This document shows positions 1,415 through 63,603 of a stretch of DNA of 64,000 nucleotides, one piece after another. The stretch's first letter is position 1. The number at the start of each line of letters is the position of its first letter. The notes under the pieces were generated by a model that was not told the origin of the DNA, made no database searches, and was given only the letters and a program-made list of their open reading frames with translations. The stretch covers positions 1 to 64,000 of the forward strand of contig CAWAGQ010000010.1 of assembly GCA_963781585.1 (NCBI GenBank), read 5' to 3'. The translations under genes were made by a program, and so were the position numbers. Source of the stretch: an uncultured Gemmatimonadaceae bacterium. Lineage in GTDB: Bacteria; Gemmatimonadota; Gemmatimonadetes; Gemmatimonadales; Gemmatimonadaceae.

Positions 1415-2732
1415 ATGCGCATTTGGAAGATCGTGTGCGCGCTGGCCACAACGGCCGGCGTCACATGGGCCCAACAGACCGGATCGCCAACGGCCACCCG
1501 GCCGGCGTCGCGCGCGAGCGCCGCCTACCCGGATACCCTCCGCCTCACGCGCAGCGAGGCTGTGGCCGCGGCGCTGGCAAACAACCCGCAGCTCGAGGTC
1601 GCCCGCGAGCAGACGTCGCAGGCCCGGGCGCGTCGCGTGCAGGCGGTGGCCATTCCCGATCCGACGCTCGTCGCCTCGCTCGACCAGCAGCCGGGATTCC
1701 TCAGGCTGGGCAGGCCGGCGAGAAGAACGTCGAGATGGACCTCTCGGTGCCGTTCCCGGACAAGTTCCGGCTGCACAACCGGATCGCGACCGCCGACGTG
1801 GAGTCGTCCGACTACCAGTTCACGCTGCTGCGCCAGCAGGTGGCCGCCGATGTGGCGCGTGCCTACGACGACCTGCTGCTCACGCGACGTCATCGGCGCG
1901 ACCTGCTCGACGGCCGCGCGCTGGCCGACTCGTTCCTCACCAGGGCGCAGGCGCGGTTCAACGCCGGCACCGTGGCCAGGCTCGACGTCATCAAGGCGCG
2001 GGTCGACGTGGCCCAGGCCGACAACGACCTGATCGCCAACGAGCGCGACATCGCCAACGCCGAAGCCGCCCTCAACCGGCTGCTCGGACGCTCGTTAGGT
2101 GCCTCGTCATCGAGCTCGACTCGCTCGACGTCCCGCGCGGATTGCCCGATCTGGGCGTGCTCGAGAGCACGGCGATGGCCGCGCGCCCCGAGCTGGGCGA
2201 CCTCAAGTCGCAGCGGAACGGTGCCCGCGCCAACACCGCGCTGGCCCGCGAGTTCTGGCTGCCGGACCTCTTCGTCGGGGCCACGCGGGACTACAACGCC
2301 CCGGGCAGCCAGGCCTACTCGGCCGGCATCGGACTCGCCTTCCCGCTCTTCTTCTGGCAGCACACGCGCGGCGAGATCGCCGAGTCGCAGCATCGCGAGC
2401 GCGAACTCGCCGCCGCCTATCAGGACCTCCGCGCCGAGGTTGGACAGGACGTGCGGCAGGCGTACGCCAGCGCCGAGACGGCGCTCCGACAGGCGCTCTA
2501 CATCCGCGACGAGCTGCTTCCGGCCGCCCAGGAGGCCTTTCGCGTGGCGTCGGTGAGCTACGGACTCGGTGGTTCTTCGGCCCTCGAGGTGCTCGACGCG
2601 CGCCGCACACTCCTCGATGCCGAGAGCCAGTATGCCGAGGCCCTCGCCAATGCGAACTCCGCGCGCTCCGACCTGGAACGCGCGGTGGGCCGCCCCCTCG
2701 ACTCGTTCCCAACCGGAGATGCCCGTGAATAG
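1415..2732 (+). CDS. czcC: TolC/CzcC-family outer-membrane efflux protein (frameshifts near 1709 and 2102)
   Basis: Signal peptide plus ALANNPQL, then RFNAGTVARLDVIKARV, then YGLGGSSALEVLDARRTL, spread over three frames joined at short G/C runs. Confidence 0.8.
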
Positions 2733-3902: not shown

Positions 3903-6900
3903 GCCATTCGTCCCTGCCGACGTCGGCGGACCAGGCACCCAGCGGCCCGTCGCTGATCCACCGCATCGTCACCGCGGCGCTGGGACAGCCGCTGCTGGTG
4001 CTCATCTTCTCGCTGGTCGTGGTCGGAGCGGGCGTCTGGTCGTTCACGCGGCTGCCGGTGGACGCCTACCCCGACATCTCCCCGCCGATCGTCGACATCA
4101 TCACGCAGTGGCCCGGCCATGCCGCCGAGGAGGTGGAGCGCCTGATCACGGTGCCGTTGGAGAACGAGATGAACGGTGTGGAACGGCTGCGGGTGGAGCG
4201 GTCGATCTCGCTGTTCGGGTTGTCCGACGTGTCGCTGACGTTCGTTGATCGAACAGACCCCTACTTCGCGCGCCAGCGCGTGTTCGAGCGGATCGCCGAC
4301 GCCGAGTTGCCGGACGGCGTCTCGCCGTCGGTGGAGCCGCTGATGGCGCCCTCGGGGCTCATCTACCGCTACGTGCTGGACAGCCCCGACCGCTCGGCGA
4401 TGGACCTCAAGGTCATCAACGACTGGGTGCTCGCCAAGGCCTACAAGGGCGTGCCGGGTGTGGCCGAGATGTCGGGCATTGGCGGGGAGACGATGGAGTA
4501 CCAGGTGGTCGTCGATCCGATCAAGCTGGCCGGCGCGGGTCTGGGCATCGGCGACGTCGTCTCGACGTTAGGCGCCAATAACAGCAACGCGGGCGGCGGC
4601 TTCTACGCCGAAGGGGGGCAGTTCTTCTATGTCCGCGGCCTGGGTCGCGTCGAGACGCTCGACGACATCGGCAAGGTGGTCCTCAAGGTCGACAACGGGA
4701 AGCCGGTCACGGTAAAGGACATCGGCCAGGTGGAGATCGGCCATGCCCCCCGGCTGGGTCAGTTCGGGTTCAATGAGCGCGATGATGCTGTGGAGGGCAT
4801 CGTGCTGATGCGCTCCGGCGAGCAGGCCCAGACGGTCCTGAAACGGGTCGAGGCGAAGACCGCCGAGCTCAATCGCTCGGTCCTGCCGCCGGACGTGAAG
4901 ATCCGGCCGTACTACGACCGCAGCGACCTGATCGCGCTCACGACGCGCACCGTGGAGGACAACCTGTTGCGCGGAATCGTGCTGGTGATCGTCGTCCTGA
5001 TCTTCTTCCTGTACAACGTGCGTACCGGGTTGATTGTGGCGGCCACCATTCCGCTCTCGCTCCTGTTCGCCTTCATCATCCTCGACCTGCGAAACATTCC
5101 GGCGAACCTGTTGTCAATCGGTGCCATCGATTTCGGCATCCTGGTGGATGGCGGAGTGGTGATGGTGGAGAACATCTACCGTCAGCTGGCGCGGCGACAC
5201 GGCACGACGTACTCGATTCGCGAAGTCATCGCCACCGCCGCCGCCGAAGTGGACCGCCCGATCGTGTACGCGGTGGCGGTGATCGTCGCCGGATTCCTGC
5301 CCATTTACGTGCTCTCGGGACCGTCGGGACGGCTCTTCACGCCCATGGCCGACACGATGATCTACGCGTTGATCGGGTCGCTGGTGCTCACCCTCACGCT
5401 GCTGCCCGTGCTGTGCATGCGGTTGCTCCGACGCGGCGTGCGCGAACGGAGGAATCCGGTCTTCGAGCGCGTGCGGTCGTGGTACGAGCGCGGACTCGAC
5501 TGGAGCCTGGTTCACCGGCGCATCGTCATCGGGGGATCGGTGCTCCTCGCTGGGCTTGCCCTCGTGCTGGTGACCACGGTCGGGGCCGAGTTCATGCCCC
5601 ATCTGGACGAAGGCGCGCTCTGGGTGCGCGCCACGATGCCGTACACCATTTCGCTCGAAGAATCGCAGAAGATCGTCCCGCAGATCCGCGCCATCCTCCG
5701 TTCGTTCCCGGAAGTCACCGTGGTGGGGTCCGAGCACGGACGGCCGGATGACGGCACCGATGCCACCGGCTTCTTCAACGCGGAGTTCTTCGTCGGGCTC
5801 AAGCCGTATTCGGAATGGAAAGGGCCGTATCACCGCAAACCGGATCTGATCGAGGCCGTTGACAAGAAGCTTTCCGCCTTCCCGGGAATCACGTTCAACT
5901 ACACACAGCCCGCTGAAGACAACGTCAACGAGGTGGAGACCGGCTTGAAGAGTTCTCTCGACGTCAAGCTCTTCGGCTCCGACCTGAAGGTGCTCCAGAC
6001 CAAGGGATTGCAGATCAAGCACGTCCTGGACGGTGTGCGTGGCATCACGCACGTCACGCTGGTGCAGGAGCTCGGGCAGCCCAGTCTCACCGTGACCGCG
6101 GACCGCGAGAAACTCGCCCGGTACGGGCTCAATGTGGAGGATGTGAACGGCCTGATCGAAGCAGCGGTAGGTGGTGCGGCGGCGACGCAGGTGGTCCAGG
6201 GAGAGCGGCTGTTCGATCTGGTGGTGCGCCTGTCGCCGCAATACCGGGAAACGCCGGAGGCGATCGGGAATATTCTGCTCCCGACGCCGGTCGGCGATCA
6301 GGTTCCGCTGCGGACCGTGGCCCGCCTGGAGTTGAGCAACGGCGCGTCGTTCATCTACCGGCAGAACAACGCGCGATTCATCGGCATTCAGTACTCGGTG
6401 GAAGGACGCGATCTGGCAGGCGCGGTCCGCGACGCGCAGGCACAGGTGGCGCGAACCGTCTCGTTGCCGCAGGGATACCGCACGGTCTGGGGGGGCGAGT
6501 TCGAGGAGTACACGGCGTCGCGTTCCCAGCTCCAACTGGTGCTCCCGATTACGCTGGGTCTCATCTTCCTGCTCCTGTTCGCCCTCTATCACAACTTCAA
6601 GTTTCCGTTGATCACGGTGGTGGGAGTGCTGCTGTCGGCGCCGATCGGGGGCATCATCGTCCTGGCGCTGACCGGCACGCCCTTCTCGGTGTCGTCGGGG
6701 ATCGGCTTTCTGGCACTCTTCGGCGTGTCGGTCCAGACGGCCGTGGTCTACATCTCGTACGCCAACGAATTGCGGCTTGCGGGACGGGGCATCCATGACG
6801 CCACGCGCGAGGCAGCCATTCTCCGGCTGCGACCCATCATGATGACGGCCTTGGTTGCCGCGTTAGGCCTGCTCCCGGCCGCGCTATCTACCGGTGTGGG

Positions 6901-9966: not shown

Positions 9967-10824
9967 CTACCCGGCGGCGGCGTACCTCCGGAGCCGCCGC
10001 AGCATTCTCCGGTCGGTGGTGGCGGCGTCGTCCAGCTTGGGGGTCTCGATGACCTTGGGCACGCGCTCCAGCCGCGGGTCGGTCATGACGCGGCGAAACG
10101 GCGCCGGGCCGAGGGCGCCCTCGCCGATCAGTTCATGCCGGTCGCGCCGGGCGCCTAACGGGGCCCGGGAATCGTTGAGGTGCAGCAGACCCAGACGGTC
10201 GAGTCCGACCAGGTCGGCGAATCGGGCCCACACGCCGTCGTAGTCCCGTTTCAGATCGTATCCGGCGGCGAATACGTGGGCGGTGTCGACGCACACGCCA
10301 ACGCGCCCGCGCTGCGGATCCGGGATCGCGGCGATCAGACCGGCCATCTCCTCGAACGAACTGCCTAACGCCGTACCGCTGCCGGCGGTCATCTCGAGCA
10401 GAAGGCGGGTCCGGCCGGGCACGACCTCGAGCGCGATGCCGATCGCGTCGGCATTGCGCGCCAGGCCGCTCTCCCGGTCGTCGATGAAGTTGCCGGGATG
10501 GGACACCAGCGCCTGCAACCCAAGTCCCTCGCACCGGCGGAGCTCGCAAATGAAGGAGACCAGCGATCGCGCCCGGAGCGCCGGCACCGGCGAGGCGAGA
10601 TTGATCAGGTAGCTGTCGTGTGCGTTGGTGGCCCGGAGCGCGGAATCGCTGACCGCGCGTCGGAAGCGCGCCCGCTCAGCGTCGTCGATCGCCGGCTCGG
10701 TCCACTGGCTCGCTTGCTTGGTGAAGATCTGCATCGCGCCGGCGCGGATGGCCAGCGCGCGGGGCAGGGCCGCCGACACGCCGCCGGCGGTGGAGACGTG
10801 GGCTCCAAGAAGGTCACAGGCCAC
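9967..10824 (-). CDS. nfo: Endonuclease IV
   Basis: LLGAHVSTAGG, HDSYLINLAS, VCVDTAHVFAAGYD, HLNDS...DRHE..GEG, IETP. Confidence 0.95.
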   Translation of the reverse strand: MACDLLGAHVSTAGGVSAALPRALAIRAGAMQIFTKQASQWTEPAIDDAERARFRRAVSDSALRATNAHDSYLINLASPVPALRARSLVSFICELRRCEGLGLQALVSHPGNFIDDRESGLARNADAIGIALEVVPGRTRLLLEMTAGSGTALGSSFEEMAGLIAAIPDPQRGRVGVCVDTAHVFAAGYDLKRDYDGVWARFADLVGLDRLGLLHLNDSRAPLGARRDRHELIGEGALGPAPFRRVMTDPRLERVPKVIETPKLDDAATTDRRMLRRLRRYAAAG

Positions 10825-13701: not shown

Positions 13702-14865
13702 CTACTTCACCCCCTGTTCGATATCCGCGATGAGGTCATCGGCGTCCTCGATCCCGATGCTGAGGCGCAGGAACCCGTCGGGGATGCCGATCGCGGCGCG
13801 CTGGTCCGCGGTGAGGTGGGCGTGGGAGGTGAAGCGCGGTTCCGAGACCAGCGTCTCGACGCCACCCAGGCTGGGCGCGTGTTTGATGAGCTTCAACCGC
13901 TTCAGGAAACGGGATGCGTGCTTGGCGCCGCCCGTGAGTTCGAGAGCCATCATCCCGCCGAATCCCGACAGGATCGCCTTCGCCACCTTGTGATCGGGGT
14001 GCGATTCGAGACCAGGGTAGTGCACCCGCGCGATCTCCTTGCGCTCCTCACACCAGCGCGCGATGCGCAGTGCGTTGGCGTTCTGACGCTGCACGCGCAC
14101 GTCGAGGGTCTTGAGTCCGCGCTCCAGCAGCCAGCACGCGAATGGGTCCGGGGCCTGGCCCCATATCATCATCTTCTGCCGCACCTCTTCCACGTATGAC
14201 GCTGTGCCCAGGACCACTCCGCCGAGCACATCGTTGTGTCCGTTGAGGTACTTCGTCGCGCTGTGAATCACCACGTCGGCGCCGACCTCGAGCGCCCGAA
14301 GGTTCACCGGACTGGCGAACGTGGCGTCGACCACCAGGGCGAGCCCCAGTTCCTGGGTCAGGTGGCTGAGCGGGCGCAGATCGGCAACGCGGCAGGTCGG
14401 GTTCGCCGGCACCTCCACGAAGATGCCCCGGGTTTCCCTGCGGAGTCGGCGCCGCCAGTCCCGGGTCTCGGTGGGGTCGACCAGCGTCGCCGTAATCCCG
14501 AAGTTCGGGAATTCCTCCTCGAGCAGGCGGCGCACGCCGCCATAGAGCCACTTGCTGGCGATCAGGTGGTCGCCAGGGCGGAGCAGCGCCAGCAGCGCGC
14601 ACACCGTCGCGCCCATCCCGCTGGCGGTGACCACCGCGGCCTCCGCCCCTTCCAGCACCGACAATCGCCGCTGGAGACTCTCCGCGTTAGGCACGTTGCC
14701 GTACCGCGGATACCGCAGGCCCTCTTCGGTACCGATCGCCTGGATGAAGTTGACCGACTGGACGAGCGGCGTGACGACCGGGGCGTCGGTCGCCTGGGCT
14801 CCGCTCCCGGCGTGCACCACCTGCGTGGCCAGAGTGGTCCCGTCCCGGGGCGTCGTGCCGGTCAT
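13702..14865 (-). CDS. Cys/Met metabolism PLP enzyme (cystathionine gamma-synthase/lyase family)
   Basis: YPRYGN.P, ASGMGA, VVDATFASP, HSATKYLNGHNDV, SLGGVETL, LRLSIGIED. Confidence 0.92.
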   Translation of the reverse strand: MTGTTPRDGTTLATQVVHAGSGAQATDAPVVTPLVQSVNFIQAIGTEEGLRYPRYGNVPNAESLQRRLSVLEGAEAAVVTASGMGATVCALLALLRPGDHLIASKWLYGGVRRLLEEEFPNFGITATLVDPTETRDWRRRLRRETRGIFVEVPANPTCRVADLRPLSHLTQELGLALVVDATFASPVNLRALEVGADVVIHSATKYLNGHNDVLGGVVLGTASYVEEVRQKMMIWGQAPDPFACWLLERGLKTLDVRVQRQNANALRIARWCEERKEIARVHYPGLESHPDHKVAKAILSGFGGMMALELTGGAKHASRFLKRLKLIKHAPSLGGVETLVSEPRFTSHAHLTADQRAAIGIPDGFLRLSIGIEDADDLIADIEQGVK

Positions 14866-16617: not shown

Positions 16618-17594
16618 GTCGAGAGGAGCTCTCTCCGGAGAAAGTGTGCGAGGCCGGTTGCCCCGTGGTGTTCGACGTTGCGCGCCGCCGCGCGAACGGC
16701 CACGCGCAAGGCGTCAGCAAACTTATCACCGGCGAGCAGTCGGGAGAAATATGTCGCGCCGAGAACGTCTCCGCATCCGGTTGGATCGCCCGGCACCGAC
16801 TCGGCGCGCTCGGCCGGAACCAGCGCCGTCCGCACCGCGCTCACGCCCTTCTGCGGGGCCGCGCGGCGAACGCCCGGCGATGTCACGTCGGCCAGGCTCT
16901 CGAACCCCGGCGCCGCGAAATACACCGCGCCGCGCTGCCCCAGCGTCACCAGCAGCGATCGCACGCCGGCGCTCATCGCGGTGGCGGCCAGGGCCATCGG
17001 GTCGGGCGCCATCATCGACATCTCCACCTCGTTGACCTGGAGCAGGTCGAAGCATTCGCACCACGCGGGGGCGTTCTGAAGCGGCTCCGGCGTCCGCAAT
17101 CCTCCCGGCTGGATGGCGAGGAGCAACGAGTGCAGGTCACAGTAGATCGGGACGCGCAGGTGCTGGCGGAGGAGTTGGACCGTCTCGAGGTCCAGTTCGA
17201 AGCCGCTGATGAGGTTGATGTACAGCGCGTCGAGATCGCGGAGCAGAGGCTTGAGGCCGAGCCACGTCCATGGAGGAACGCCGCCATGCAACACCTCGGA
17301 CCGGAGTTCGTCATCCTGGTAGCGCAGCTCGACGCGGTTATTGGGGTACGGCACCTCGATCGGAGCCGCGTCGGGGGCCAGCCGCCGGAGGGACCCGAGA
17401 AAGTCGTAGGCGCGGGGGAGCGCGTCGCGGCCGATCTTGACCAGCGGCACAACCTGCCAGTCGTTAGGTAGCGCCGCGTCGAACGCGCCCAGCGCGTACG
17501 TGATCCCCCCCCACTCCTCCACCGTGCGACGGTGCGGGTCCCTCCCGTGGATCACGTCCCACACGAAGCTGCCGATCACGCCGACGCGATTCAT
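16614..17594 (-). CDS. PfkB-family carbohydrate kinase
   Basis: QVNEVE, VTLGQRGA, DPTGCGDVLGA. Confidence 0.85.
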   Translation of the reverse strand: MNRVGVIGSFVWDVIHGRDPHRRTVEEWGGITYALGAFDAALPNDWQVVPLVKIGRDALPRAYDFLGSLRRLAPDAAPIEVPYPNNRVELRYQDDELRSEVLHGGVPPWTWLGLKPLLRDLDALYINLISGFELDLETVQLLRQHLRVPIYCDLHSLLLAIQPGGLRTPEPLQNAPAWCECFDLLQVNEVEMSMMAPDPMALAATAMSAGVRSLLVTLGQRGAVYFAAPGFESLADVTSPGVRRAAPQKGVSAVRTALVPAERAESVPGDPTGCGDVLGATYFSRLLAGDKFADALRVAVRAAARNVEHHGATGLAHFLRRELLST

Positions 17595-21177: not shown

Positions 21178-22973
21178 TAATCCACCTGAAGTACCGCGAG
21201 AAACGCTTCCTGCGGAATCTCCACCGATCCCACCTGCTTCATCCGCTTCTTCCCTTCCTTCTGCTTCTCCAGGAGCTTGCGCTTGCGGGTAATGTCGCCG
21301 CCGTAGCACTTGGCCAGGACGTCCTTGCGGAGGGCCTTGACGGTGGACCGTGCGATGACCTTGTTGCCGATGGCCGCCTGGATCACCACCTCGAAGAGTT
21401 GCCGCGGAATCAGTTCCTTCAGCTTGTCGGCGATCTTCCTGCCCCACTCGTAGGCCTTGTCGCGGTGGATGATCACCGAGAACGCGTCGACCGGATCACC
21501 GTTTATCAGCATGTCGAGGCGCACCAGGTCGCTTGCCCGATAGTCGGCCGGCTCGTAGTCGAGACCGGCGTAGCCGCGACTGATCGTCTTCAGCCGGTCG
21601 TAGAAATCGAGAATGATCTCACCGAGCGGGAAGTCCCAGTCGAACTCGACGCGGGTGGGATCGAGGTACTTCATGCCGCGGTACGCGCCCCGCCGCTCGT
21701 TGCCTAACGTCATGATCGGTCCGATGTACTCCACCGGTGCCACGATCCGCGCCTTCACGAACGGCTCCTCGATTCGGTCGAGCGATGCCGGTGGCGGCAT
21801 CTTCGACGGGTTCTCGATCAGCTCGCGCGTCCCGTCGGTGCGGAAGGCATGATACTCCACGTTGGGCACCGTGGTCACGAGGCTCAGGTCGAACTCGCGC
21901 TCCAGCCGCTCCTGGACGATCTCCATGTGCAGCAGGCCGAGAAACCCGCACCGGAACCCGAAGCCTAACGCGGTGGACGTCTCGGGCTCGTACCGCAGCG
22001 ACGCGTCGTTGAGCTGGAGCTTGGACAACGCGTCCCGCAACTGCTCGTACTGCTGCGTGTCGGTCGGGTAGATCCCGGCAAAGACCATCGAGTGGACGTC
22101 CTTGTAGCCGGGTAGCGGCACGGTGGCGGGCCGCGCCGCGTCGAAGATCGTGTCACCGGCGCGCGTCTCCTTGACCGATCGCACGTTGGCAACGACGTAC
22201 CCGACCTCTCCCGCCGTGAGACGCTCGCCGCGCACCTGACGCAGCTGCAGGTAGCCGACCTCGGCCACTTCGTACCGTGCGTCGTTCGACCCGAAGCAGA
22301 TCTCCATGCCCGGATGCAGCTCGCCGTCCACCACCCGCACGCTCGGAATGGCCCCTCGATAGCGGTCGTAGTACGAATCGAAGATCAGTGCGCGCAGCGG
22401 CGCCGATGGATCGCCGCGGGGAGGCGGCACGCGCTGCACGATGGCCTCGAGCAGCTCGGGGATCCCCGTCCCCTCCTTGGCGCTCACCATCAGAATCTCG
22501 TCCGGGTTCGCCCCGATCAGGTCGTGGATCTCCTGCTTGCGCCGCTCGGGCTCCGCGCCGGGAAGGTCGATCTTGTTGAGGACCGGCAGAATCTCCAGGC
22601 CGGCGTCGAGCGCCAGAAACATGTTCGACACGGTCTGGGCCTGCACCCCCTGTGAGGCATCGACCACCAGAATGGCTCCCTCACAAGCCGCCAGTGAACG
22701 CGACACCTCGTAGGTGAAGTCCACATGTCCCGGCGTGTCGATCAGATTCAGCTCGTAGGTCTCGCCGTCGCGGGCGACGTGCTGCATGCGAACCGCGTTC
22801 AGCTTGATCGTGATGCCCCGCTCCCGCTCCAGATCGAGCGTGTCCAGCACCTGCTCCTTCATCTCGCGCTTGCCGAGCGTGCCGGTGCTCTCGATGAGCC
22901 GGTCGGCCAGGGTCGACTTGCCGTGGTCGATATGCGCGACGATGCAGAAGTTGCGGATCTGCTCGAGCTTCAA
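21177..22973 (-). CDS. lepA: Translation elongation factor 4
   Basis: [54 protein letters not shown]; probable TTG start. Confidence 0.97.
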
Positions 22974-43920: not shown

Positions 43921-44027
43921 ACGGAGCAGGCGAGTAGGACTCGGCGCCTAACGAACATGGTTCGGGGCGCCGGCCGAAAGCGGCTCACCAGTCGCACCCC
44001 GCCCGCACACGCTCGATGCTACTTTAC

Positions 44028-46892: not shown

Positions 46893-48110
46893 TCACGGGC
46901 GATCCGCAGACGCACCGAACGACACCAAGAGCCCCAGTCCCACCCGCCGACCTGGCACAACGAGCACGATGGGTACCGGCCCGCCATCGCTGCGCGGCAG
47001 CGCCAGTGCCACCTGTGCGGCGCTCCCGCTCCGCGACGGCTGACCCGGCGAGGTGTCGATGATCGCCTCTGCGCGCGCGCGCGTCCCTCTCGCGTAGGCC
47101 ATGGCTTCGATGGACGCTCCCAGCCAGAGCGCGCCCGCGCCGGCGGCGCCGACCACGAAGTGCGGTCGCTCCGTCCGGGGAATCGAGTCGGAGTACGGGT
47201 TCCCGAACGGATCCGTGAATTGCTGGACTCGAATCGTCTCCTGGGAGAGAAAACCGTAGTAGACCGCGCCGGCCACGGCACCGAGCACCGCCAGTCCGAG
47301 CAGCGGACGGCCGGTGTTCATCTGCCCCAACCCGGGCACGATCCCCGAGAGGAGCGCGCGACCGGGACTGTAGACGCGATCCTGGAGACGCGCCGAAGCC
47401 GTCCGGATCGCAGCGCGGTCGGTGGCCGCGGGGGCGAGGTCGAGGTACTTCTCGAAGTCCCCGATGGCGGCCGCGCGCTCTCCTCGGGCGGCGCGGGCGA
47501 GGCCGCGGTTGTAGTACGCCTCGCCCGCAGTGGGGAGCTGGGTGGCGACGGCCCCGAAAACGGCTTCGGCGGCGGCGAACTGGCGCCGCTCGAGCAGGGC
47601 CACGCCGGAACGGAAGTTCGCCCGGGCTTCGTCCACCCGTGCCAGCTCCGAGGCCGGCACCAGCCGCACGACCCGGCCCCGGACCTCGTCTCCGTCCGGC
47701 GCGTTAGGCGAGAGCGTCAGGTAGCGGCAGTATTCGCGCACCGCGGCAGTGGCCGAATCGAGCGCCTCGTATTCGCGCCCGAGGTAGTACGCGACCCGCG
47801 CGTTCGACGGCGCCCGTAGCGCCGCCTTGAAGAATGCGTCGCGTGCCGCGGCGTGCTCCCCCTGCAGCGCCGCTTCCTGGCCGTCGGCGATGAGCTGACG
47901 TGCCTCCGCGTCGTCCCCGGACCCCGTACCGATCGGTGCCCCCGGGGTCGTGGGCAAGTACCTGGTGCATCCGGAGGCTCCGCTGGACGCGAGCGTCGGC
48001 TTCGGGGCAAGGCGCTGGGCGTCGGCGCGACCCGCGACCGCGGCCAGTGGCATCGCTATCGCGGCCAGGACCAGTGCGCGTCGAAGAATGAATCCCGCCA
48101 CCGGATGCAC
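46893..48110 (-). CDS. Secreted TPR-repeat protein with C-terminal membrane segments
   Basis: Signal peptide; YYLGREYEAL, AYYNRGLARA...YLDLAP; LLSGIVPGLGQM. Confidence 0.82.
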   Translation of the reverse strand: MHPVAGFILRRALVLAAIAMPLAAVAGRADAQRLAPKPTLASSGASGCTRYLPTTPGAPIGTGSGDDAEARQLIADGQEAALQGEHAAARDAFFKAALRAPSNARVAYYLGREYEALDSATAAVREYCRYLTLSPNAPDGDEVRGRVVRLVPASELARVDEARANFRSGVALLERRQFAAAEAVFGAVATQLPTAGEAYYNRGLARAARGERAAAIGDFEKYLDLAPAATDRAAIRTASARLQDRVYSPGRALLSGIVPGLGQMNTGRPLLGLAVLGAVAGAVYYGFLSQETIRVQQFTDPFGNPYSDSIPRTERPHFVVGAAGAGALWLGASIEAMAYARGTRARAEAIIDTSPGQPSRSGSAAQVALALPRSDGGPVPIVLVVPGRRVGLGLLVSFGASADRP

Positions 48111-48120
48111 GTGGTCGCTC

Positions 48121-51100
48121 CTAGTTCACGGTGATGGACGAGGTCGCCACCTTCCCCTCGCACGTCACGGTAATGGTCGCTGTTCCGGTGGCCACCGGTG
48201 TAACGGTCAGTACGATCTGACCAAGGGGATCCGTGTTGCCGGATGTCGGCGCCACCGTCGCTACGTTGGTGTCGCTGGACATGACCGTGCAAGCCCGCCC
48301 AGCCAGCGCCGCGTGTGAAGCGTCTTCGACGTTCGCCGTCAGCGAGGCAGCCGTGGGTACCGTCAAGGGGGGAACCGGGTCCGGCGTGATGAAGACGGTG
48401 TCGACTGCAGCCAGCACGCGCACCACGACCACTCCCACCTGTCCCTCGCTGGTGGCCGAAATCGTGCTGTTCCCGGCCGAGACGCCCGTGATCAGCCCGG
48501 TGGACGGGTCCACCGTCGCCACCGATGGATCGCTCGACGCCCAGATGATCGGGCGTCCGGTGAGGGTGTTGTTGGCGGCATCTTTGAGCGTCGCCGTGGC
48601 CTGCAGCGAGGTGGTGCCGAGAATTGAATCGCCCGGAGTCGTGACCGTTACCGTACTGACGTGAGCCAGCACCCGAACGTCGTAGGCGCCGATCTTCGTT
48701 TCGCTCGTCGCCGTGATTGTCACCGTGCCGCTCGACACGCCGGTGATCAATCCGGTCAACGGATCGACCGTTGCCAGAGATGGATCCCCTGAAGCCCAGG
48801 TGACCGGCCTGCCGGTCAGTGTGTTGTTGCTCGCGTCCTTGAGCGTTGCGGTGGCCTGCAGCGTCCCCGTGCCGAGGATCGAGTCTCCCGCGGCAGTCAC
48901 GGTCACCGTGTTCACCGGCGCCAGCATGTGCACGGGCAAGCTCCCCACGATGCCCGCGCTGGTGGCGGTGATGTTCACGTTCCCCGGCGCAACGCCGGTG
49001 ATGGTGATGGCGACCTGACCTGAGCCGTTCGAGGTCGCGCTCCCCGGAGCGACCGTGGCCACGGACGGGTTGCTCGAGGCGATGGTGACGGTGCGTCCCG
49101 GGATTGGGGTGCTCGTGGCATCGCGCACGGTCGCTGTCGCCGATAGCGTCCCGGTGCCGACGATCAAGGTGTCGACTGGCGCGGTCACCGGCACCGAGCC
49201 CACCGCGGCGAGCACGTGGACCACCAGGTTGTCGCTCTTCCCTTCAACGGTCGCCGTGATCGTGGCAGTCCCGGGTGACACGCCGGTGATGAGCCCCGAC
49301 GCCGAATTGACCGTGGCGACGGGAGTCGCATTGCTGGACCATGTGATCGGGCGCCCGGTAAGGAGGTTGTTGCCCGCGTCGCGAAGCGTCGCCGCAGCCT
49401 GCAGCGTCGCCGTGCCGATGATCGAATCCGCCGGTGCGGTCACCGAAACGGAATTCACCGACGCCAGCATCCGGACCGGGAGCGTGCCGCTCACGCCGCT
49501 GCTGGTGGCGGTGATGGTGGCCGTCCCGGGCGACACGCTCGTTACGCTGATCGGCACGTTGCCCCCAGCGCCGGACGTGGCGTTTGAAGGACTCACGGTG
49601 GCTACCCCGATGTTGTTCGAGGAGATCGTGACCGTGCGTCCGGGAAGTGGGTTGTTGTTGGTGTCGCGCACCCTGGCGTTGGCCGACAGCGACCCGGCGC
49701 CAATCAGCGAGTCGGGGTTGGCCGTCACCTGCACCGAGCCCACGCCCGTGACCACGCGAATGCTCTTCGTTCCCTGTTTCGACTCGCTGGTGGCGGTGAT
49801 GGTCGTGGTACCGTCCGCGACACCGGTGATAAGCCCGGTGGACGCGTTCACCGTTGCCACCGATGGACTGCTGCTGGTCCACGCGATCGGGCGTCCGGTA
49901 AGAATGACGCTGCCGGCGTCCCTGAGCGTCGCCGTCGCCTGCAGCGTGGAGGTGCCGACGATGGAATCACTGGGCGCCGTCACGGTCACCGTGCTCACCG
50001 GATTCAGCATCCGCAGCGCAGTCGACCCGCTGTGTCCGCCGCTGCTCGCGTTGATGGTCGCCGAGCCCGCAGCGACACCCGTGACGGTGATGGCGACGGT
50101 CCCCGTCGCACTGGTTGTCGCCGAGAGGGGCGCCACGGTTGCGACCGCGGGATTCGACGAGGAGATGGCCACCGAACGGCCAGGGAGCGGGTTCGAGCCC
50201 GCGTCGCGGACGGTGATGGTGCCCGACACGGTGCCGGGGAGGATCAACGAGTCAGGCGCCACGGCAACGACCACCGATCCCGTACCGGCCAGCACCGTGA
50301 TGTCCGACGTGGCACTCTTGCCGGCGACCGTCGCGGTGATGGTGGCCGATCCCAGCGCAACCGCGGTCACCAGTCCGGTCTGACTGATGGTGGCGGCGGC
50401 CGCATTGCTGGTGTTCCAGGACGTGGATCGGCCGCCTAACGCCACTCCGGCGATCGCGCCGCCGGAGGAATCGCGCGCCGTGACGATCAGCTGCTGGGTC
50501 CCCGGCGGGACCAGCGTCGCCGTCGGCGGCGACAGATCGACGCGCTCGATCGGCACCAGGTCGATCGTCGCGCTCGCGGTGCCCAGGATTCCCTCACTCA
50601 GCGCCCGAATCTGGGTCACCCCCGGCGCCACGCCGGTGACCACGCCGGCCAACGCGTCGACGCTGGCGGCCGCAGGATTCGAGGACGACCACAACACGGT
50701 CCGCCCGGTGAGTTCGTGACCGAGCGCGTCCTTCATGGTGGCGGTGAATCGCACCCCATACGTCGCACCGACGTGCACCGTCGCCGGATCGGGCGTCACC
50801 ACCACTGATGCCACGGGCGCGTTGGACACCGACAGGCTCGCCGTGCCCTCGACGCTCCCGGGAGGGGGCGCACCGGGTGTGGTCACTGTGGCCGTGATGA
50901 TGGCGCTGCCCACCGCCACGCCGGTCGCGACGCCGCTCGCGCCGTCGATCGTGGCCACCGTAGGATCGCTGCTCGACCACACTACCGTGCGGCCGCTCAC
51001 CGTGAGCGGCACACCACCGGCATCGAACAGGTTGACGCCGAAGTTGGTCGTCTCGTTCACCCGGATCGACGCGGTCGAGGGCACGACATTCATGGTGGCG

Positions 51101-52014: not shown

Positions 52015-52028
52015 CGACCGCGCCGGAC

Positions 52029-54836
52029 CTAACGTGGCGCTACGACGCGTGTGGGGAGCGCCGCGTTCTCGCGATCACCGCCACCCAACTGACCGTCGAC
52101 GTTGTAGCCCCAGCAGTACGCTTCGTTCAGCGTCGTGATGGCGCAGGTGTGCGCGCCGCTCGCGTGCAGCGCGGCCAGACGGGACAATCCGGTCACCGCC
52201 ACCGGACGGGAGTGATCGGTGGTGGTGCCGTCACCAAGCTGGCCGTACGCGTTGCGTCCCCAGCACAGCGCCCGCCCGTCGATCGTACGGGCGCAGGAGT
52301 GTCCGCTTCCCGCCACCACCGTCAGAAACGTCGCGGACGCATCCACCACGCGGGGGAACAGCGCCGGTACGCCCGGCGTGCCGGTGCCGAGTTGCCCGTA
52401 GTTGTTCTGACCCCAGCAATACGCCATGCCGGACGGTGCGACCCCGCACGAGTGCGCGCTCCCGGCGGCAATGCTGATGAACCGCGCGTCGGTTGCCACC
52501 GCAACGGGCGTGGTGCGGTCGGTGGTGCTTCCATCACCGAGCTGTCCGTTCCGATTCTCGCCCCAGCAATAGCCAATTCCGTCGAGTGTGAGCGCGCACG
52601 TGTGGTTCCAGCCGACCGCCAGGACCGCAACCGTGGCGGGAAGGGGAACAGGGACAGGCGCCGTTCTGGAGGAACGAGTGCCGTCTCCGAGCTGACCGTA
52701 CGCATTCGCGCCCCAGCAGAAGACAATCCCGGCCCGCGACAGCGCGCAGGTATGAGCGGCGCCGGTGCGCACCAACTGGAAGGTCGTGGCGCTGTTCACG
52801 TGAACCGGTGCCGCGCGCACCGACGTCGTGCCATCGCCGAGCTGTCCGGAATCGTTCTTTCCCCAGCAGTAGAGTTCACCGCCTGCTGTAACGCCGCAGG
52901 TGTGCCAGGCACCGGCCGCGATCTGGGTGAAGCCGAAGTCGCCCACCACCGGTTCCGGCGAGGTGCGTCCCTGGAACGATCCGTCGCCCAGTTGACCGCT
53001 CTCGTTGTTTCCCCAGCACGCCGCGCGCCCGTTGTCACCGATCAGACAGGAGTGTCGACTGCCGGCCGTAATGGTGCCGCGAACCACAGGGAAGATGAGC
53101 GCACGTACGGGCGTCGCCGGCGGGACCGGAGTCGTGTTCACCGTCGAGGACTGGCGTGTGAGCGTGGAGCCCGCTGCCCCGCCAGCAACCGGTGGCGGAG
53201 TGCCGGAGACCGTCGGGGCTATCCGCGCGACGGAATCGCGTGAACCCGGGGACGTTCGCGTTCGCGCGGTGGCGGAGTTCGGGACCGGCTCTCCGGCACT
53301 CTTCGCGGCGGTCACGCCGCTCTTCCTGGCGGCAGCCTCGTCGCGCGGTGGGGTGAGGGGTCCTGGCGAGGAGCTGACGTGCGCGTCGGGTACGGTGCGA
53401 CCCGCGAGCGTGTCGGGCGGGGCCGCTGCCGCGAGGTCAAAGGTGGAATCCGATTGCTTGCGCACCGAGTCGGCGCTGGCAACGGGCACTTCCACGGCGG
53501 CCCGATCGTTCATGAGGGCGACTGAGCCCCCTGCCGCAGCGCCGACGTCCCGCGCTGGCAACCCGAGCCCGAACCAGAGCGCGCCCGCGCTGGCGATCAG
53601 CACCATACCGCCGGCGGCGAGCCAGAGTCCGAAACGCGACTCCCGACGAACCTCCTTCTGTACCTCAAAACCCCGGAGCACGGGCTCGATCGCGTCCACT
53701 TGCTCGAACGACAGCTCCTTCAGCGCTCCATCGGGGTCCGTGGTCGCCGGCGCGTCCGCGGGCGAGCCAACACGCACCGCCTGACGATCGAACTTGACCG
53801 TCTGGAGCACCGCCTCGCTCGCGGGACCGCCCTCGCCGCGCGCCTGGCGCGTCGTCGCTGAGCGTCGTCGCCGGCGCCTTGCCGACTGCCATTCCCGGAA
53901 TCCCGGCGGCATCGGCTCGCTGCTCAACAGCGCGAGAAACCGCCCGGCGCTGCTCCAGCGGCGGTCGGGGTTCTTCTGCATCAGCCCCTCCAGCAGGTAC
54001 TGGAGGGTGGGGGACACGTCCTTGCGGAATTCGTCCAGGGGTGCCAGGAAATCGTGCTTCTGCCGGTAGATCACGTTGTACAGCGTCTCGCCGGACCACG
54101 GGCGGGCACCAGTCAGCATCTCCCAACCGACCATGCCCAGGCTGTACAGATCGCTGCGTCCGTCGATGTGAAATCCGTCGATCTGCTCGGGCGCCATGTA
54201 GGTCGGCGTGCCGATGGTGGTGCCGGTGGCGGTGAGCTCGGTGGGGGCGTCCAGCACGCGCGCCACGCCGAAGTCCGACAGCATTGCGCGTCCCGAGACT
54301 TCGTCGAGGAAGATGTTCTCCGGCTTCACATCCCGATGCACCACCCCCGCCTTGTGGGCGTAGGCCAGCGCGCGGGCCACGTCGCGCAGCACGTGCTCGG
54401 CGCGCGTGACGTCGAATGGTCCGGCCTCGAGCGCCGCCTTCAGCGTGCGTCCCGGCACCAGCTGCATTACGAGCGCCAGGCTGCCGTCGGAGAGGTGTCG
54501 TATCGCGTAGACGCCGACGATGTTCGGATGCTGCAGCTGGGCCACCGTCCGCGCCTCGCGGGCCAGCCGCGACACGGCTTCTGCGTCGGGAGAAAGGCGA
54601 GGCTGTACCACCTTGATCGCCACGTCACGCTGCAGGGCGCGGTCGCGTGCGCGGAACACCACCGCCATCCCCCCGCGCCCCAGCTCACCCAGCAGCTCGT
54701 AATCGGGATCGAGCTCACTCGGCCAGAGCGCGGGTCCTCCCCCCGGGTCCCGGCCGCCCTCTCCGAAGGCTGGCTCCGTCACCGGTGCCTCACGCGGCGG
54801 CAGTTCGCCCGGTACGTGTTCGCCGTCGCTCCGCAT
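52029..54836 (-). CDS. Membrane Ser/Thr kinase with extracytoplasmic RCC1-like beta-propeller
   Basis: LGRGGMAVV, VAIKV, HRDVKPENI, DFG, GTPTYMAPE; TM segment; about 7 H(T/S)C...CWG.N..GQLGDG repeats. Confidence 0.93.
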   Translation of the reverse strand: MRSDGEHVPGELPPREAPVTEPAFGEGGRDPGGGPALWPSELDPDYELLGELGRGGMAVVFRARDRALQRDVAIKVVQPRLSPDAEAVSRLAREARTVAQLQHPNIVGVYAIRHLSDGSLALVMQLVPGRTLKAALEAGPFDVTRAEHVLRDVARALAYAHKAGVVHRDVKPENIFLDEVSGRAMLSDFGVARVLDAPTELTATGTTIGTPTYMAPEQIDGFHIDGRSDLYSLGMVGWEMLTGARPWSGETLYNVIYRQKHDFLAPLDEFRKDVSPTLQYLLEGLMQKNPDRRWSSAGRFLALLSSEPMPPGFREWQSARRRRRRSATTRQARGEGGPASEAVLQTVKFDRQAVRVGSPADAPATTDPDGALKELSFEQVDAIEPVLRGFEVQKEVRRESRFGLWLAAGGMVLIASAGALWFGLGLPARDVGAAAGGSVALMNDRAAVEVPVASADSVRKQSDSTFDLAAAAPPDTLAGRTVPDAHVSSSPGPLTPPRDEAAARKSGVTAAKSAGEPVPNSATARTRTSPGSRDSVARIAPTVSGTPPPVAGGAAGSTLTRQSSTVNTTPVPPATPVRALIFPVVRGTITAGSRHSCLIGDNGRAACWGNNESGQLGDGSFQGRTSPEPVVGDFGFTQIAAGAWHTCGVTAGGELYCWGKNDSGQLGDGTTSVRAAPVHVNSATTFQLVRTGAAHTCALSRAGIVFCWGANAYGQLGDGTRSSRTAPVPVPLPATVAVLAVGWNHTCALTLDGIGYCWGENRNGQLGDGSTTDRTTPVAVATDARFISIAAGSAHSCGVAPSGMAYCWGQNNYGQLGTGTPGVPALFPRVVDASATFLTVVAGSGHSCARTIDGRALCWGRNAYGQLGDGTTTDHSRPVAVTGLSRLAALHASGAHTCAITTLNEAYCWGYNVDGQLGGGDRENAALPTRVVAPR

Positions 54837-56991: not shown

Positions 56992-57065
<74 letters not shown>

Positions 57066-57321: not shown

Positions 57322-57540
57322 ATGAAGAAGATCACTGCGGAAAAGTTCGAGGAGCAGTGTCTCGCTATTCTCGAGGGACTGGGTCCCGAAGGCGTCGTGG
57401 TCACGAAGCACGGCCGGCCCGTGGCCCGCGTACTCCCGATGCGAGAATCGTCGGCGGAGCTGATTGGGGCGCTGAGGGGGCAGGTCACGATCAAGGGCGA
57501 CTTGCTCAGCACTGGCGTATCGTGGGAGGCCGATCGTTAG
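57322..57540 (+). CDS. Phd/YefM-family antitoxin
   Basis: MKKITAEKFEEQCLAIL...VVVTKHGRPVARVLP. Confidence 0.85.
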   Translation: MKKITAEKFEEQCLAILEGLGPEGVVVTKHGRPVARVLPMRESSAELIGALRGQVTIKGDLLSTGVSWEADR

Positions 57541-57750
57541 GCTCGACACGCATGTGCTCGTGTTCGCCCTGGCCGGCAAGCTCACGAGGACCAAGCGGCG
57601 AGTCGTCACGGCCGAAACGTGGAGGTCCCGGCCATCGTGCTCTGGGAGCTGGCAAAGCGCGTGCAGCCAGGCCGTCTGGAGCTCGATCTCGATGACGCCG
57701 AGAAGGTGCAGCTCCCGAGCCGGAGGAGGACAAATCCGGAATCAGGCTGA
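57533..57750 (+). pseudogene. Degraded PIN/VapC toxin
   Basis: LDTHVLVFAL without a canonical start; frameshift near 57625 into AIVLWELAK...GRLELDLDD; the C-terminal half is missing. Confidence 0.72.
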
Positions 57751-60924: not shown

Positions 60925-63603
60925 CTACTCCGCCCGCATGGCGATCGACGGGTCGACGCCCGTCGCGCGGCGACTCGGCACCGCGCACGCCACGATCGCC
61001 GTAGCCAGCAGCACAATACCTGCGGCGCCAAAGGACGACGGGTCGGTGCGCGACAGGCCGTACAGCATCTTTTCCACGGCTTTGGTGGCCCACCAGGCCC
61101 CCACCAGTCCGAACGCGAGCCCGAACGTCGCCAACAAGAGCCCGTTCCGCACCACACCCCCGGCGATGGTGCGCCGCGTCGCGCCCAGCGCCATGCGAAT
61201 TCCAATCTCCCGTGTTCGCTGCGCCACGCTGTACGCCATGACGCCATACAAGCCGATTGCCGCGAGCACGACTGCGATAATAGTGAACGCGGCCAGCAGC
61301 ACCATCGTGAACCGCGGGCCCTCCACACTGCGCTCCATCGCGGCGTCGATGTCCACCAGTTCCGGCGGCGGCAGGTGGGGATCGAGTTCTGCAACCAGAG
61401 CCCGCAGTCCCGGCATCGCCTGAAAACCAGGCTTCATGCGGACGATGACGGCGAGCGCGTAGTAGCCGGGAGAGGGGAGGTACAGCGTCGGATCGCTGCG
61501 CTGATCGGTCAGGCCGCCGGTTGCGGCGTCGGCGACGACACCGACGATGGTGCGCCACCGGCCGCCACCGTCGATCTGTACGAGACGGACACGGGTCCCC
61601 AGCACCGAGCGTCCGTGCCCCATCTTCCTGGCGAATCCTTCGTTCACGATGATCTGGCCGCCCGCGCGCGACGAATCGGTGAACGTGGTCCCCTCCACGA
61701 TGCGCATGCCCATGACGCGGAAATACGCCGGCTCGACCGCGTTGTACCGGATGAACGACGAAGTCCCTTTCGGCGGAGGGGGATCGTTCTCGCCCTGGAG
61801 GGCACCGATCAGGAACCGGTAGCCCGGCGGTGCGCCGTCGGCAAGCGTCGCGGCCTCCACACCCGGCATCGCGCGCAGCCGCCGGACCAGCTCCTCGTCG
61901 AATGCGCGCCTGGCCGTGTCGTTAGGGTAACGGCGCTCCGGCAGGTCCGGGGTCACCGCGTACAGTCCGCGCGGTGCGAATCCCGGGTCGGTCGACTGGA
62001 GCCTGATCACGCTGCGCACGAGCAGGGTGGCACCGACGAGCAGCGTGGTCGAGAGCGCCATCTCGCTCACCACCAGCACCGATCGCAACCGGTTGTGGCG
62101 GCGGGCATGGGATGTCGTGAGGGCACCGGCTTTGAGGGATTCATGCGTCGAGTACCGGGCCGACTGGAGCGAACCGATCAGTCCCACGCCCAGGCCGGCA
62201 GCCAGCGAGAGCGCGATCGTCACCAGCAGCGCCGTGCCGTTGAGCGTCGCGGCGCTCAATTCGATCACGCTTGCGGGCCGGAGCGCGATCGCCGCGCGCA
62301 AGCCGGCGTAGCCAATGGCCAGACCGCCAACGCATCCCGCGGTGGCGAGCACCAGACTCTCGGTCAGGAGCTGCCGGACCACGCGGAGCTTGTTCGCGCC
62401 CAGCGCGGCGCGCACCGCCAGCTCACGCTGCCGCGTCGCTGCGCGCGCCAGCAGCAGGTGCGCCACGTTGGCGCAGGCGATGAGCAGCACGAGCGCCACC
62501 GCACCGCTCAGCAGCAGGAGTGATTCGTGGAAACCGACCATCTCGCCGGGAGACGTCAGCTTCGTGCGAAAACGCATCTCATCACCACTGATGCCCTGGG
62601 TGCGCGCGGTGAGCGAATCGAGCTCCTGGGCAGCGTTCGCGAATGACACTCCCGGGCGCAGGCGCCCGACCAGCGCGACTCCCATCGTGCTGTCGGTCAA
62701 CTCCAGCGGAAGCCACAGGTCCGTCGTTGTCTGCCGAATCCGCGGGAGTCGCATGGCTTCCGGCATCACGCCGACGATCGTATAGGACTTGTCATCGACC
62801 GCGATCGCTCGGTCGATGACCTGGGAGTCCGCCCCGAACCGGGAGCGCCACATGCCTTCGCCGATCATGACGACGGGTGCGCGTTCGGCGACGTCGGACG
62901 ACGTGAACGCCCGCCCCAGCAGGGGAAGTTGTCCGGCAAGAGCAGGGAAGCCCGGTGTGATCCGCGCGGCGTGCGCCGTGGACGGTGTGCCGCCTGGCGG
63001 CTCGAGGGTGACGTCGGTATTGGTGTACGCTTGCAGCGACTCGAAGGACCGGTTGCCTTCGATCCAGGCGCGCGCCAGCGTGTAATCGGGGTTGATCGTT
63101 ATCCGGATGCCGGTCTCGTTGCCGGAAGTCGGCTCCTGAAAGACGAGCATGACGCGGTCGGCATCGGGATAGGGCAGCGGATGCAGAATGAGGCTGTTCA
63201 CCACGCTGAACACCGCAGTGTTGGCGCCGATGCCGAGCGCCAGGGTGAGAACGGCGGCCGCGGTCCATCCCTTCTGGCGTCCGAGAGTGCGCAGCGCGAA
63301 CCGCACGTCCTGCAGAAATGCATCCACGATCTGGGCTCGAGCGGCGCGCCGTTCTCTCCGGGCGGTAATGGTGACGCATTCCGCGCGTACGCCCGCCAGG
63401 TCGCCAAGTCGCCGCATGACGGCGGCCCTGGCGTCGGCCTCGGACATGCCGCGCGCGACGTAGTCGCGCACCCGCATCTCGAAGTGAAAGCGCAACTCGT
63501 CGTCCACGTCGGCGTCGGCGCGCGGGCCGAAAAACCGCAGGTAGCGGCGCCAGGTGCGGGCGACGCGCGCGCCCGGAGCCGGCGTCTGGGTCGGATCCTG
63601 CAT
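60925..63603 (-). CDS. ADOP-family duplicated orphan ABC permease (MacB/FtsX domains)
   Basis: QDVRFALRTL, LALGIGANTAVFS, LLIACANVA, QRTREIGIRMALGA, VDP..AMRAE. Confidence 0.92.
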   Translation of the reverse strand: MQDPTQTPAPGARVARTWRRYLRFFGPRADADVDDELRFHFEMRVRDYVARGMSEADARAAVMRRLGDLAGVRAECVTITARRERRAARAQIVDAFLQDVRFALRTLGRQKGWTAAAVLTLALGIGANTAVFSVVNSLILHPLPYPDADRVMLVFQEPTSGNETGIRITINPDYTLARAWIEGNRSFESLQAYTNTDVTLEPPGGTPSTAHAARITPGFPALAGQLPLLGRAFTSSDVAERAPVVMIGEGMWRSRFGADSQVIDRAIAVDDKSYTIVGVMPEAMRLPRIRQTTTDLWLPLELTDSTMGVALVGRLRPGVSFANAAQELDSLTARTQGISGDEMRFRTKLTSPGEMVGFHESLLLLSGAVALVLLIACANVAHLLLARAATRQRELAVRAALGANKLRVVRQLLTESLVLATAGCVGGLAIGYAGLRAAIALRPASVIELSAATLNGTALLVTIALSLAAGLGVGLIGSLQSARYSTHESLKAGALTTSHARRHNRLRSVLVVSEMALSTTLLVGATLLVRSVIRLQSTDPGFAPRGLYAVTPDLPERRYPNDTARRAFDEELVRRLRAMPGVEAATLADGAPPGYRFLIGALQGENDPPPPKGTSSFIRYNAVEPAYFRVMGMRIVEGTTFTDSSRAGGQIIVNEGFARKMGHGRSVLGTRVRLVQIDGGGRWRTIVGVVADAATGGLTDQRSDPTLYLPSPGYYALAVIVRMKPGFQAMPGLRALVAELDPHLPPPELVDIDAAMERSVEGPRFTMVLLAAFTIIAVVLAAIGLYGVMAYSVAQRTREIGIRMALGATRRTIAGGVVRNGLLLATFGLAFGLVGAWWATKAVEKMLYGLSRTDPSSFGAAGIVLLATAIVACAVPSRRATGVDPSIAMRAE

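Follow-up and report, generated by a model that had tools for sequence, protein, structure and literature searches.

Among the hyper-abundant, lineage-specific words known from bacterial genomes, the uptake signal sequence (USS) of the Pasteurellaceae has a 9-mer core and the DNA uptake sequence (DUS) of the Neisseriaceae is a 10- to 12-mer. To our knowledge, sequence-specific DNA uptake has been established in only two proteobacterial families and is debated for highly iterated palindrome 1 (HIP1) of the cyanobacteria, and we know of no transformation specificity in the phylum Gemmatimonadota. Here we describe an eight-base word, CGTTAGGC, that recurs throughout a stretch of 64,000 nucleotides from an uncultured Gemmatimonadaceae bacterium (assembly GCA_963781585.1, contig CAWAGQ010000010.1, positions 1 to 64,000). 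This whole stretch is referred to as the window, and all counts of the word are taken from it. The word is a real, lineage-specific signature that acts at the level of DNA.

Passages of Findlay and Redfield (2009; PMC2817400) describe USS and DUS as non-palindromic and present in similar numbers in both orientations, as more evenly spaced than random repeats and as strongly biased in reading frame; the same passages ascribe their origin to mutation plus recombination. For the two genomes studied in PMC1939737, those of H. influenzae and N. gonorrhoeae, an excerpt of that paper cites counts of 1471 and 1965, and it reports the "significant even spacing" of Karlin. HIP1 is presented in an excerpt of PMC13756078 as an abundant octamer that is recognised by methylases and has a quasi-periodic distribution, and the same excerpt gives the present proposal that it serves as an uptake or recognition mark. 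For the 8-mer CGTTAGGC as a genome motif, no description was found among the papers listed from the open-access literature of PubMed Central and bioRxiv; those listed for the 8-mer as a text string appear to have no bearing on motifs of bacterial genomes.

Abundance of the word

The heptamer CGTTAGG occurs 23 times in the window by exact string count, 13 times on the plus strand and 10 times on the minus strand. In 100 dinucleotide-preserving shuffles the count was 2.77 +/- 1.52, the largest value was 7, and none of the shuffles (0/100) reached 23. Such over-representation irrespective of orientation (23 copies against 2.77 expected, split 13 to 10) is a trait of USS and DUS. The heptamer is followed by C 19 times, by T three times and by G once, giving CGTTAGGC, CGTTAGGT and CGTTAGGG, respectively. 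The 19 copies of CGTTAGGC compare with 0.94 expected under an order-1 Markov model or 0.66 under an order-3 model, and CGTTAGGC is the top 7/8-mer of the window once the words of one tandem heptamer array (21108-21178) are set aside. Its density is approximately one copy per 2.8 kb, counted in either orientation. Twenty-four one-mismatch variants of CGTTAGGC were examined, and none was enriched, with the possible exception of CGTTAGGT (3 against 0.46 expected). A second dispersed motif was considered and rejected, as GGCCAAA and the related top k-mers proved to come from the tandem heptamer array (21108-21178) and from a small number of degenerate tracts.

The enrichment of CGTTAGG at these places is confirmed. 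An earlier note on this DNA, made by scanning the letters, had listed 23 positions with their strands, all of which were exact (13 plus, 10 minus), and it was equally right in extending 19 copies to CGTTAGGC and three to CGTTAGGT. Its estimate of ~69% G+C has to be lowered to 67.6%, and the 2-3 copies that it expected for the 8-mer fit the 7-mer (2.77), the expectation for the 8-mer being 0.66 to 0.94; against this Markov null the 19 copies in the window remain a large excess.

Coding context of the copies

Coding frames were obtained by codon-usage segmentation and checked against Pfam and NCBIfam matches. In these frames, 14 copies read xCG-TTA-GGY on the coding strand, specifying [S/T/A/P]-Leu-Gly, and five place the word on the non-coding strand, so that the gene reads CCT-AAC (Pro-Asn). 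One further copy reads CGC-CTA-ACG (24462; the frame was picked by codon statistics only), two provide a TAG stop codon (52028, and also 57535 if its 87-amino-acid open reading frame [ORF] is real), and one is non-coding. When the codons of each segment were shuffled synonymously 300 times, a procedure that preserves the proteins and also the TTA and CCT codons, the coding segments held 1.15 +/- 1.11 copies, with a largest value of 6, against the 21 observed. The word accounts for 14 of the 17 TTA codons in the coding segments; a script tally of 15/18 had included the mis-framed stop site at 52028.

The places at which the word could be encoded were used very unequally. The word is present at 14/51 [STAP]-Leu-Gly sites and at 4/8 codable (..G)-P-N-(G..) sites, compared with 1/28 for [SRGC]-L-T and 0/37 for V-R. 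Thus, two of the four stop-free frames are used and two are almost unused, and [SRGC]-L-T is avoided even though it needs fewer mutations. The reading-frame bias of the [STAP]-Leu-Gly class was significant by Fisher's test against both [SRGC]-L-T (P=0.014) and V-R (P=0.0002).

The data support a signal in the DNA rather than a coding or RNA signal, because the word runs both with and against transcription, is read in three different frames, also forms stop codons and occurs outside coding DNA, and is far above the codon-preserving null. Regulation at the level of translation through the TTA codon was ruled out, with five to six copies antisense and three outside codons. The imposition of TTA on lepA, mfd, nfo and pdxA indicates a force on the DNA that is stronger than codon selection. 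Most of what the earlier note had said about coding context stands. It had stated that most TTAG/CTAA tetramers in genes belong to the motif, and the figures are 22/24 in coding segments and 23 of 39 in the window overall. The frames are as it described them: xCG-TTA-GGC (including lepA twice, nfo twice, mfd, pdxA and AcrB twice), CCT-AAC, CTA-ACG, two stops and the trailer of the 16S rRNA gene; the homologous ALGGR position of two Ig paralogs indeed reads GCG-TTA-GGC in both. Its proposal of a DNA-level signal is strengthened by orientation, frames, stops, the non-coding copy and the codon-shuffle excess (21 against 1.15 +/- 1.11), and the suspected concentration of TTA codons in the motif is borne out by the 14 of 17.

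Spacing and orientation

The spacing of the copies is more even than random placement would give. The 22 gaps between them have a coefficient of variation (CV) of 0.52, against 0.96 for a uniform null (P=0.0004), and the largest gap is 5.5 kb, compared with a random median of 9.6 kb (P=0.0026). The evenness was also apparent against a null in which 23 sites were drawn from 64 codable places (P=0.0002), and the spacing CV of the word is the lowest among the 699 7-mers with 18-30 copies in the window. The single orientations are not clearly even (plus strand, P=0.049; minus strand, P=0.72), and the orientation labels look random. Because evenness is seen only when the orientations are pooled, the regular unit is a copy, either way round, every few kilobases. 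Two pairs of copies lie close together, at distances of 210 and 261 nt; both are direct repeats within genes.

Word sites in related genomes

Relatives were taken as syntenic loci among the matches listed for the LepA of the window, used as a query in genome contigs. The Gemmatimonadota among these matches comprise five metagenome-assembled genomes (MAGs) of Gemmatimonadales/Gemmatimonadaceae with 75-84% LepA identity, one Longimicrobiales MAG with 68% identity and one short fragment. Placement of the window in the Gemmatimonadota is supported by protein similarity, since the best LepA matches listed are the Gemmatimonadaceae/Gemmatimonadales MAGs at 75-84% identity.

At both lepA sites the leucine is kept in 6/6 relatives, which encode it with CTC, CTG, CTT or TTG. 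The mfd site is more changed: relatives have GAT/GAG-CTC/CTG-GGG (D/E-L-G) and the window has GCG-TTA-GGC, which amounts to four base changes, including replacement of D/E by A; the Leu-Gly at the word aligns with a Leu-Gly of M. smegmatis Mfd. At the Cys/Met-enzyme site, Pro-Asn is present in 5/5 relatives (CCG/CCC-AAC/AAT) and the window deviates only in its CCT codon. At the PfkB and BatA sites, a residue has changed at a variable position. Most of the substitutions are synonymous and run through the almost unused leucine codon TTA or the rare proline codon CCT; at some sites a poorly conserved residue next to it was replaced as well. The orthologous codons of the relatives share alignment columns with the word sites, which indicates substitution in place. 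By these alignments, point substitutions are shown to have installed the word in genes that already existed; no element was inserted. A dispersed repeat of the repetitive extragenic palindrome or miniature inverted-repeat transposable element type was rejected, as conservation ends after eight bases and the copies occupy orthologous codons within genes. The ordinary codons that relatives use at the conserved Leu-Gly and Pro-Asn positions likewise argue that the word is a derived state and not a base-calling error.

In the seven Gemmatimonadota loci listed, CGTTAGG was counted 0, 1, 0, 0, 0, 0 and 1 times, each about as expected, and for the other 73 loci listed the total is 49 copies over 1.25 Mb. 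When "dialect" words were sought de novo among the 7/8-mers of the syntenic loci L001-L005, L020 and L027 and of two outgroups, ordinary codon-pair words alone emerged; an example is GAGCCCGA, with 11 copies where 1.8 were expected and a CV of its spacing of 0.89.

Individual copies

The copies are described here by the span of eight bases and the strand; unless another form is named, the copy reads CGTTAGGC. Leucine codons are the most frequent setting. The TolC-like outer-membrane efflux gene (Pfam OEP) carries CGTTAGGT at 2093..2100 (+), read TCG-TTA-GGT (S-L-G), with an apparent frameshift a few bases downstream. Copies in AcrB-family coding sequence stand at 4566..4573 (+), ACG-TTA-GGC (T-L-G), and at 6861..6868 (+), GCG-TTA-GGC (A-L-G). 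Two copies lie in nfo, which encodes deoxyribonuclease IV, at 10153..10160 (-), CCG-TTA-GGC (P-L-G), and at 10363..10370 (-), GCG-TTA-GGC (A-L-G). Two more are in lepA: at 21702..21709 (-) the gene reads ACG-TTA-GGC (T-L-G), where the leucine codon of relatives is CTC, CTT or CTG, and at 21963..21970 (-) it reads GCG-TTA-GGC, the A-L-G of a conserved ALGFG, where relatives have CTC, TTG or CTG. The BatA-like gene has TCG-TTA-GGC (S-L-G) at 26532..26539 (+), in a region that is variable in relatives. The C-terminal frame of mfd has GCG-TTA-GGC (A-L-G) at 29688..29695 (+), pdxA has ACG-TTA-GGC (T-L-G) at 33969..33976 (+), the CNNM/CorC-type gene has GCG-TTA-GGC (A-L-G) at 35030..35037 (-), and the cation-efflux (CDF) gene has TCG-TTA-GGC (S-L-G) at 36968..36975 (+). 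The two genes for Ig-like (Big_2) proteins, A and B, are paralogous at the word and both read GCG-TTA-GGC within A-L-G-G-R, at 44781..44788 (-) and 50434..50441 (-). Because the flanking sequence is common to both, these two copies are probably one event by descent, and this leaves about 22 independent sites.

The copies antisense to genes are found at 14685..14692 (+), opposite a gene for a Cys/Met pyridoxal phosphate enzyme that reads GTG-CCT-AAC-GCG (V-P-N-A); at 17462..17469 (+), where CGTTAGGT lies opposite the PfkB-kinase gene, CCT-AAC-GAC (P-N-D), at a position variable in relatives; at 41073..41080 (-), opposite typA/bipA, GGG-CCT-AAC-GGC (G-P-N-G); at 47702..47709 (+), opposite the tetratricopeptide repeat (TPR) gene, TCG-CCT-AAC-GCG (S-P-N-A); and at 61920..61927 (+), where the single CGTTAGGG lies opposite a MacB-like permease gene, TAC-CCT-AAC-GAC (Y-P-N-D). 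The copy at 24462..24469 (+) is antisense to an ORF between lepA and a DUF58 gene; this ORF had no family match in Pfam or NCBIfam; codon statistics favour a frame that reads CGC-CTA-ACG, and the alternative open frame has CCT-AAC. The Ser/Thr-kinase-RCC1 gene ends in a TAG stop (CGT-TAG) provided by CGTTAGGT at 52027..52034 (-). The copy at 57535..57542 (+) provides the TAG stop (CGT-TAG) of the 87-amino-acid ORF at 57277-57540, the reality of which is doubtful, its sole match being weak and Phd-like; without a real ORF there, the copy would be intergenic. Finally, the copy at 43946..43953 (-) is non-coding and lies 27 nt past the 3' end of the 16S rRNA gene.

Other features of the window

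Apparent frameshifts occur at ~1710 and ~2104, in the TolC-like efflux gene, and at ~29311, in mfd, both genes being well conserved apart from this. None is in a homopolymer, and the three could be real pseudogenes or assembly errors.

The motif-free gap of 4.2 kb between 17462 and 21703 covers two features. One is a TauE/SafE-family exporter gene (18653-19432) between the ROK and heptosyltransferase genes; it had no tblastn match in the seven related loci, and in L001 and L002 little DNA separates the ROK gene from the heptosyltransferase gene. The other is a module at 20440-21178, between the heptosyltransferase gene and lepA, in which a 120-amino-acid ORF of the "23S rRNA-intervening sequence protein" family (PF05635, 115 bits; 20736-21098) stands between two repeat tracts. 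These are a perfect (TTTGGCC)x10 array at 21108-21178 and degenerate heptamer tracts at 20468-20545, with a further degenerate tract at 13660-13695. The module looks like an insertion, because the heptosyltransferase gene and lepA are directly adjacent in L001 and L002.

The rRNA genes look like an unlinked arrangement. A complete 16S rRNA gene (42382-43920) stands alone, with no 23S or 5S gene after it, and a convergent Ig-like gene starts ~140 nt downstream. A tRNA-Ile(GAT) gene, usually found in the rRNA spacer, is at 56992-57065, 13 kb from the 16S gene. The minus-strand cluster at 44064-56601 encodes two proteins with Big_2/Big_1 Ig-like repeats (~900 and 1297 amino acids), a TPR protein, a Ser/Thr kinase-RCC1 fusion and two FHA-domain proteins. 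Intergenic tandem repeats were seen at 23329-23391 (a 27-nt unit repeated 2.3 times with 97% match, GC-rich and partly palindromic) and at 39492-39557 (a 33-nt unit repeated 2.0 times). An ATPase of the PilT/PilU family in the window carries an N-terminal extension of ~135 amino acids and is preceded and overlapped by a DUF6812 gene (37447-39499 for both); no further pilus genes were found near it in the window.

Candidate functions of the word

The anatomy of the word best matches that of a DNA uptake sequence, and we put this function forward tentatively, at a probability that falls short of even. A component of a type IV pilus-based uptake machinery would bind double-stranded DNA carrying the word, conspecific fragments with the word would be preferentially taken up and recombined, and over time the uptake bias would fix new copies wherever the protein tolerates the change. 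One copy per typical fragment would suffice and further copies nearby would add little, which would lead to even, orientation-free spacing. The window does encode a type IVa pilus ATPase of the PilT/PilU family (37925-39499; 446 bits, cut-off 319), which offers weak support because PilT has other roles.

A number of observations weigh against uptake. The window shows one pilus ATPase, and PilT serves twitching motility too. There is no halo of near-matches around the word, its one-mismatch variants being at expectation bar CGTTAGGT, and accumulation driven by uptake usually leaves many near-matches. No flanking consensus beyond the eight bases was seen when the 23 copies were compared. The enrichment is ~20- to 30-fold, compared with 200- to 1000-fold for USS and DUS. 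Furthermore, USS and DUS are under-represented in coding DNA and form terminators from intergenic inverted pairs, and the word does neither: coding sequence makes up approximately 87% of the window and contains 21-22 of the 23 copies, giving equal density in coding and non-coding DNA, and no inverted pairs forming terminators were found among the 23 copies. The tripeptides [STAP]LG and PN[VADEG] are about equally frequent in the proteins of the window and in aligned orthologues (for example, 10 against 11 for L002), a comparison of small numbers and low power. Its narrow distribution is also unfavourable. USS and DUS are common to whole families and are shared by related species, sometimes as dialects, whereas the word is absent as an enrichment at 75-84% LepA identity; the five Gemmatimonadales loci and one Longimicrobiales locus together have one CGTTAGG in ~107 kb against ~5 expected, and no comparably enriched dispersed 8-mer of another sequence was found in these relatives. 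With this distribution, the coding density and the inverted pairs, three secondary features of USS and DUS are lacking in the word. No description of an uptake word or of competence in Gemmatimonadota was found among the titles and abstracts listed from the open-access PubMed Central and bioRxiv literature; the other papers listed on uptake words dealt with Neisseria, Haemophilus or unrelated subjects.

It is possible, if rather doubtful, that the word is instead read inside the cell, as a binding or loading site of a chromosome-maintenance protein, with selection keeping a copy within a few kilobases of every locus. The reader might be a helicase-nuclease tamed by a mark of self DNA irrespective of direction, a nucleoid-organising protein or a protein that initiates repair. 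Even spacing of the pooled copies with a largest gap of 5.5 kb is what a site within reach of everywhere predicts, the sharp specificity without enriched near-variants and the same density in coding and non-coding DNA would follow, and a narrow lineage is expected if the word is tied to one DNA-binding protein. An intracellular reader thus explains evenness, specificity and coding density at least as well as uptake does. However, family searches gave no evident candidate binding protein in the window, and we know of no system in which an orientation-free, non-palindromic 8-mer serves chromosome maintenance at this density. The evenness itself does not separate the two accounts, because it is also given as a property of uptake sequences in the relevant passages of PMC2817400. 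We consider it unlikely that the word is a by-product of methylation and biased repair, in which a lineage-specific methyltransferase recognises the word and a cognate short-patch repair or modification-dependent process converts near-matches to it. The word is sharply defined and lineage-restricted in the manner of methyltransferase specificities, and HIP1 is a precedent as an abundant, quasi-periodic octamer recognised by methylases (excerpt of PMC13756078). Short-patch repair, however, would work one base at a time, and the sites needed two to four changes, among them transversions and the replacement of a residue; near-matches occur about as often as expected, the word is not palindromic, no methyltransferase or Vsr-like gene lies within the window, and the even spacing would be left unexplained.

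A polar signal for recombination or translocation, such as Chi for an enzyme of the RecBCD/AddAB type or something akin to the FtsK-orienting polar sequences (KOPS), is very unlikely. It would account for a non-palindromic 8-mer over-represented inside genes, and the density of E. coli Chi is likewise on the kilobase scale and comparable to that of the word. The 13:10 strand split with interleaved orientations, though, has P(<=13 of 23)=0.04 if 75% of copies were co-oriented, and evenness appears only with orientations pooled; this polarity test is not absolute, because no replichore can be defined from the weak GC skew of the window. The earlier note had argued from the lack of polarity against Chi and KOPS, and these figures agree with it. 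It had also allowed for a platform artefact, which we now regard as barely credible. Systematic miscalls at a modified motif, or a polishing error, would mean that the true sequence is CGCTGGGC; CTG to TTA requires just two transitions and keeps the leucine, and apparent frameshifts, three in all, interrupt genes that are otherwise intact (twice in the efflux gene, once in mfd), the copy at 2093 having one of them within a few bases on its 3' side. But miscalls on the opposite strand would turn Pro-Ser (CCC-AGC) into Pro-Asn, and 5/5 relatives have Pro-Asn at the Cys/Met-enzyme site; CTC is as frequent as CTG at the leucine sites of relatives, including those of lepA; single-error intermediates are not enriched (CGTTGGGC, 2 against 4.1 expected; CGCTAGGC, 2 against 1.8); and an artefact would not be evenly spaced. 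On the Pro-Asn conservation, the CTC codons, the intermediates and the spacing, base-calling error from CTG to TTA was rejected. The mechanisms that the earlier note had offered, four in number and without a choice among them, are narrowed here towards the uptake-sequence type, which is not proven.

On balance, we lean towards one of two interpretations. Either a DNA-uptake or kin-recognition word was invented independently in Gemmatimonadota, recently enough for relatives at the family level to be without it, or the word may represent an undescribed class of orientation-free chromosomal "milestones", placed approximately every 3 kb, read by a protein and held by selection that forces the rarest codon into housekeeping genes. 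If uptake is indeed the function, this would be a third and young case of an uptake word, in an abundant and barely cultured soil phylum, and would suggest that Gemmatimonadota undergo natural transformation. It would also be a tractable case for the origin of such words, because relatives still show the state before, codon by codon. The practical uses would include placing the word on donor DNA for genetics, binning contigs and flagging foreign DNA. If the word is read inside the cell instead, it would be a new kind of chromosome-wide signal.

Comparison with known systems

The word may be an addition to the known lineage-specific, hyper-abundant genomic words (USS, DUS, HIP1 and Chi); its anatomy appears closest to USS and DUS, and membership of that class is unproven. 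Chi, such as the 8-mer of E. coli, is alike in being a non-palindromic 8-mer that is over-represented, mostly in genes, with kilobase spacing. Chi is strongly co-oriented with replication, whereas the word is split 13:10, is interleaved in orientation and has an evenness that ignores orientation. Like the word, HIP1 (GCGATCGC) is an octamer found in great numbers within genes, and it is quasi-periodic according to the excerpt of PMC13756078. It differs in being palindromic, in having known methylases and in occurring phylum-wide, whereas the word is asymmetric, has no known methylase and is restricted to a lineage.

The word also differs from USS and DUS, in having only 8 bp and no flanking consensus and in showing no enrichment of near-matches; no tripeptide enrichment was detected either, at low power. 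Its phylum has no reported uptake specificity. If the density of the word in the window held genome-wide, extrapolation to a genome of a few megabases would give approximately one to two thousand copies, similar in number to USS and DUS. Like them, as characterized in the passages of PMC2817400, the word is short, non-palindromic, present in both orientations, evenly spaced, biased in reading frame and made by point mutation.

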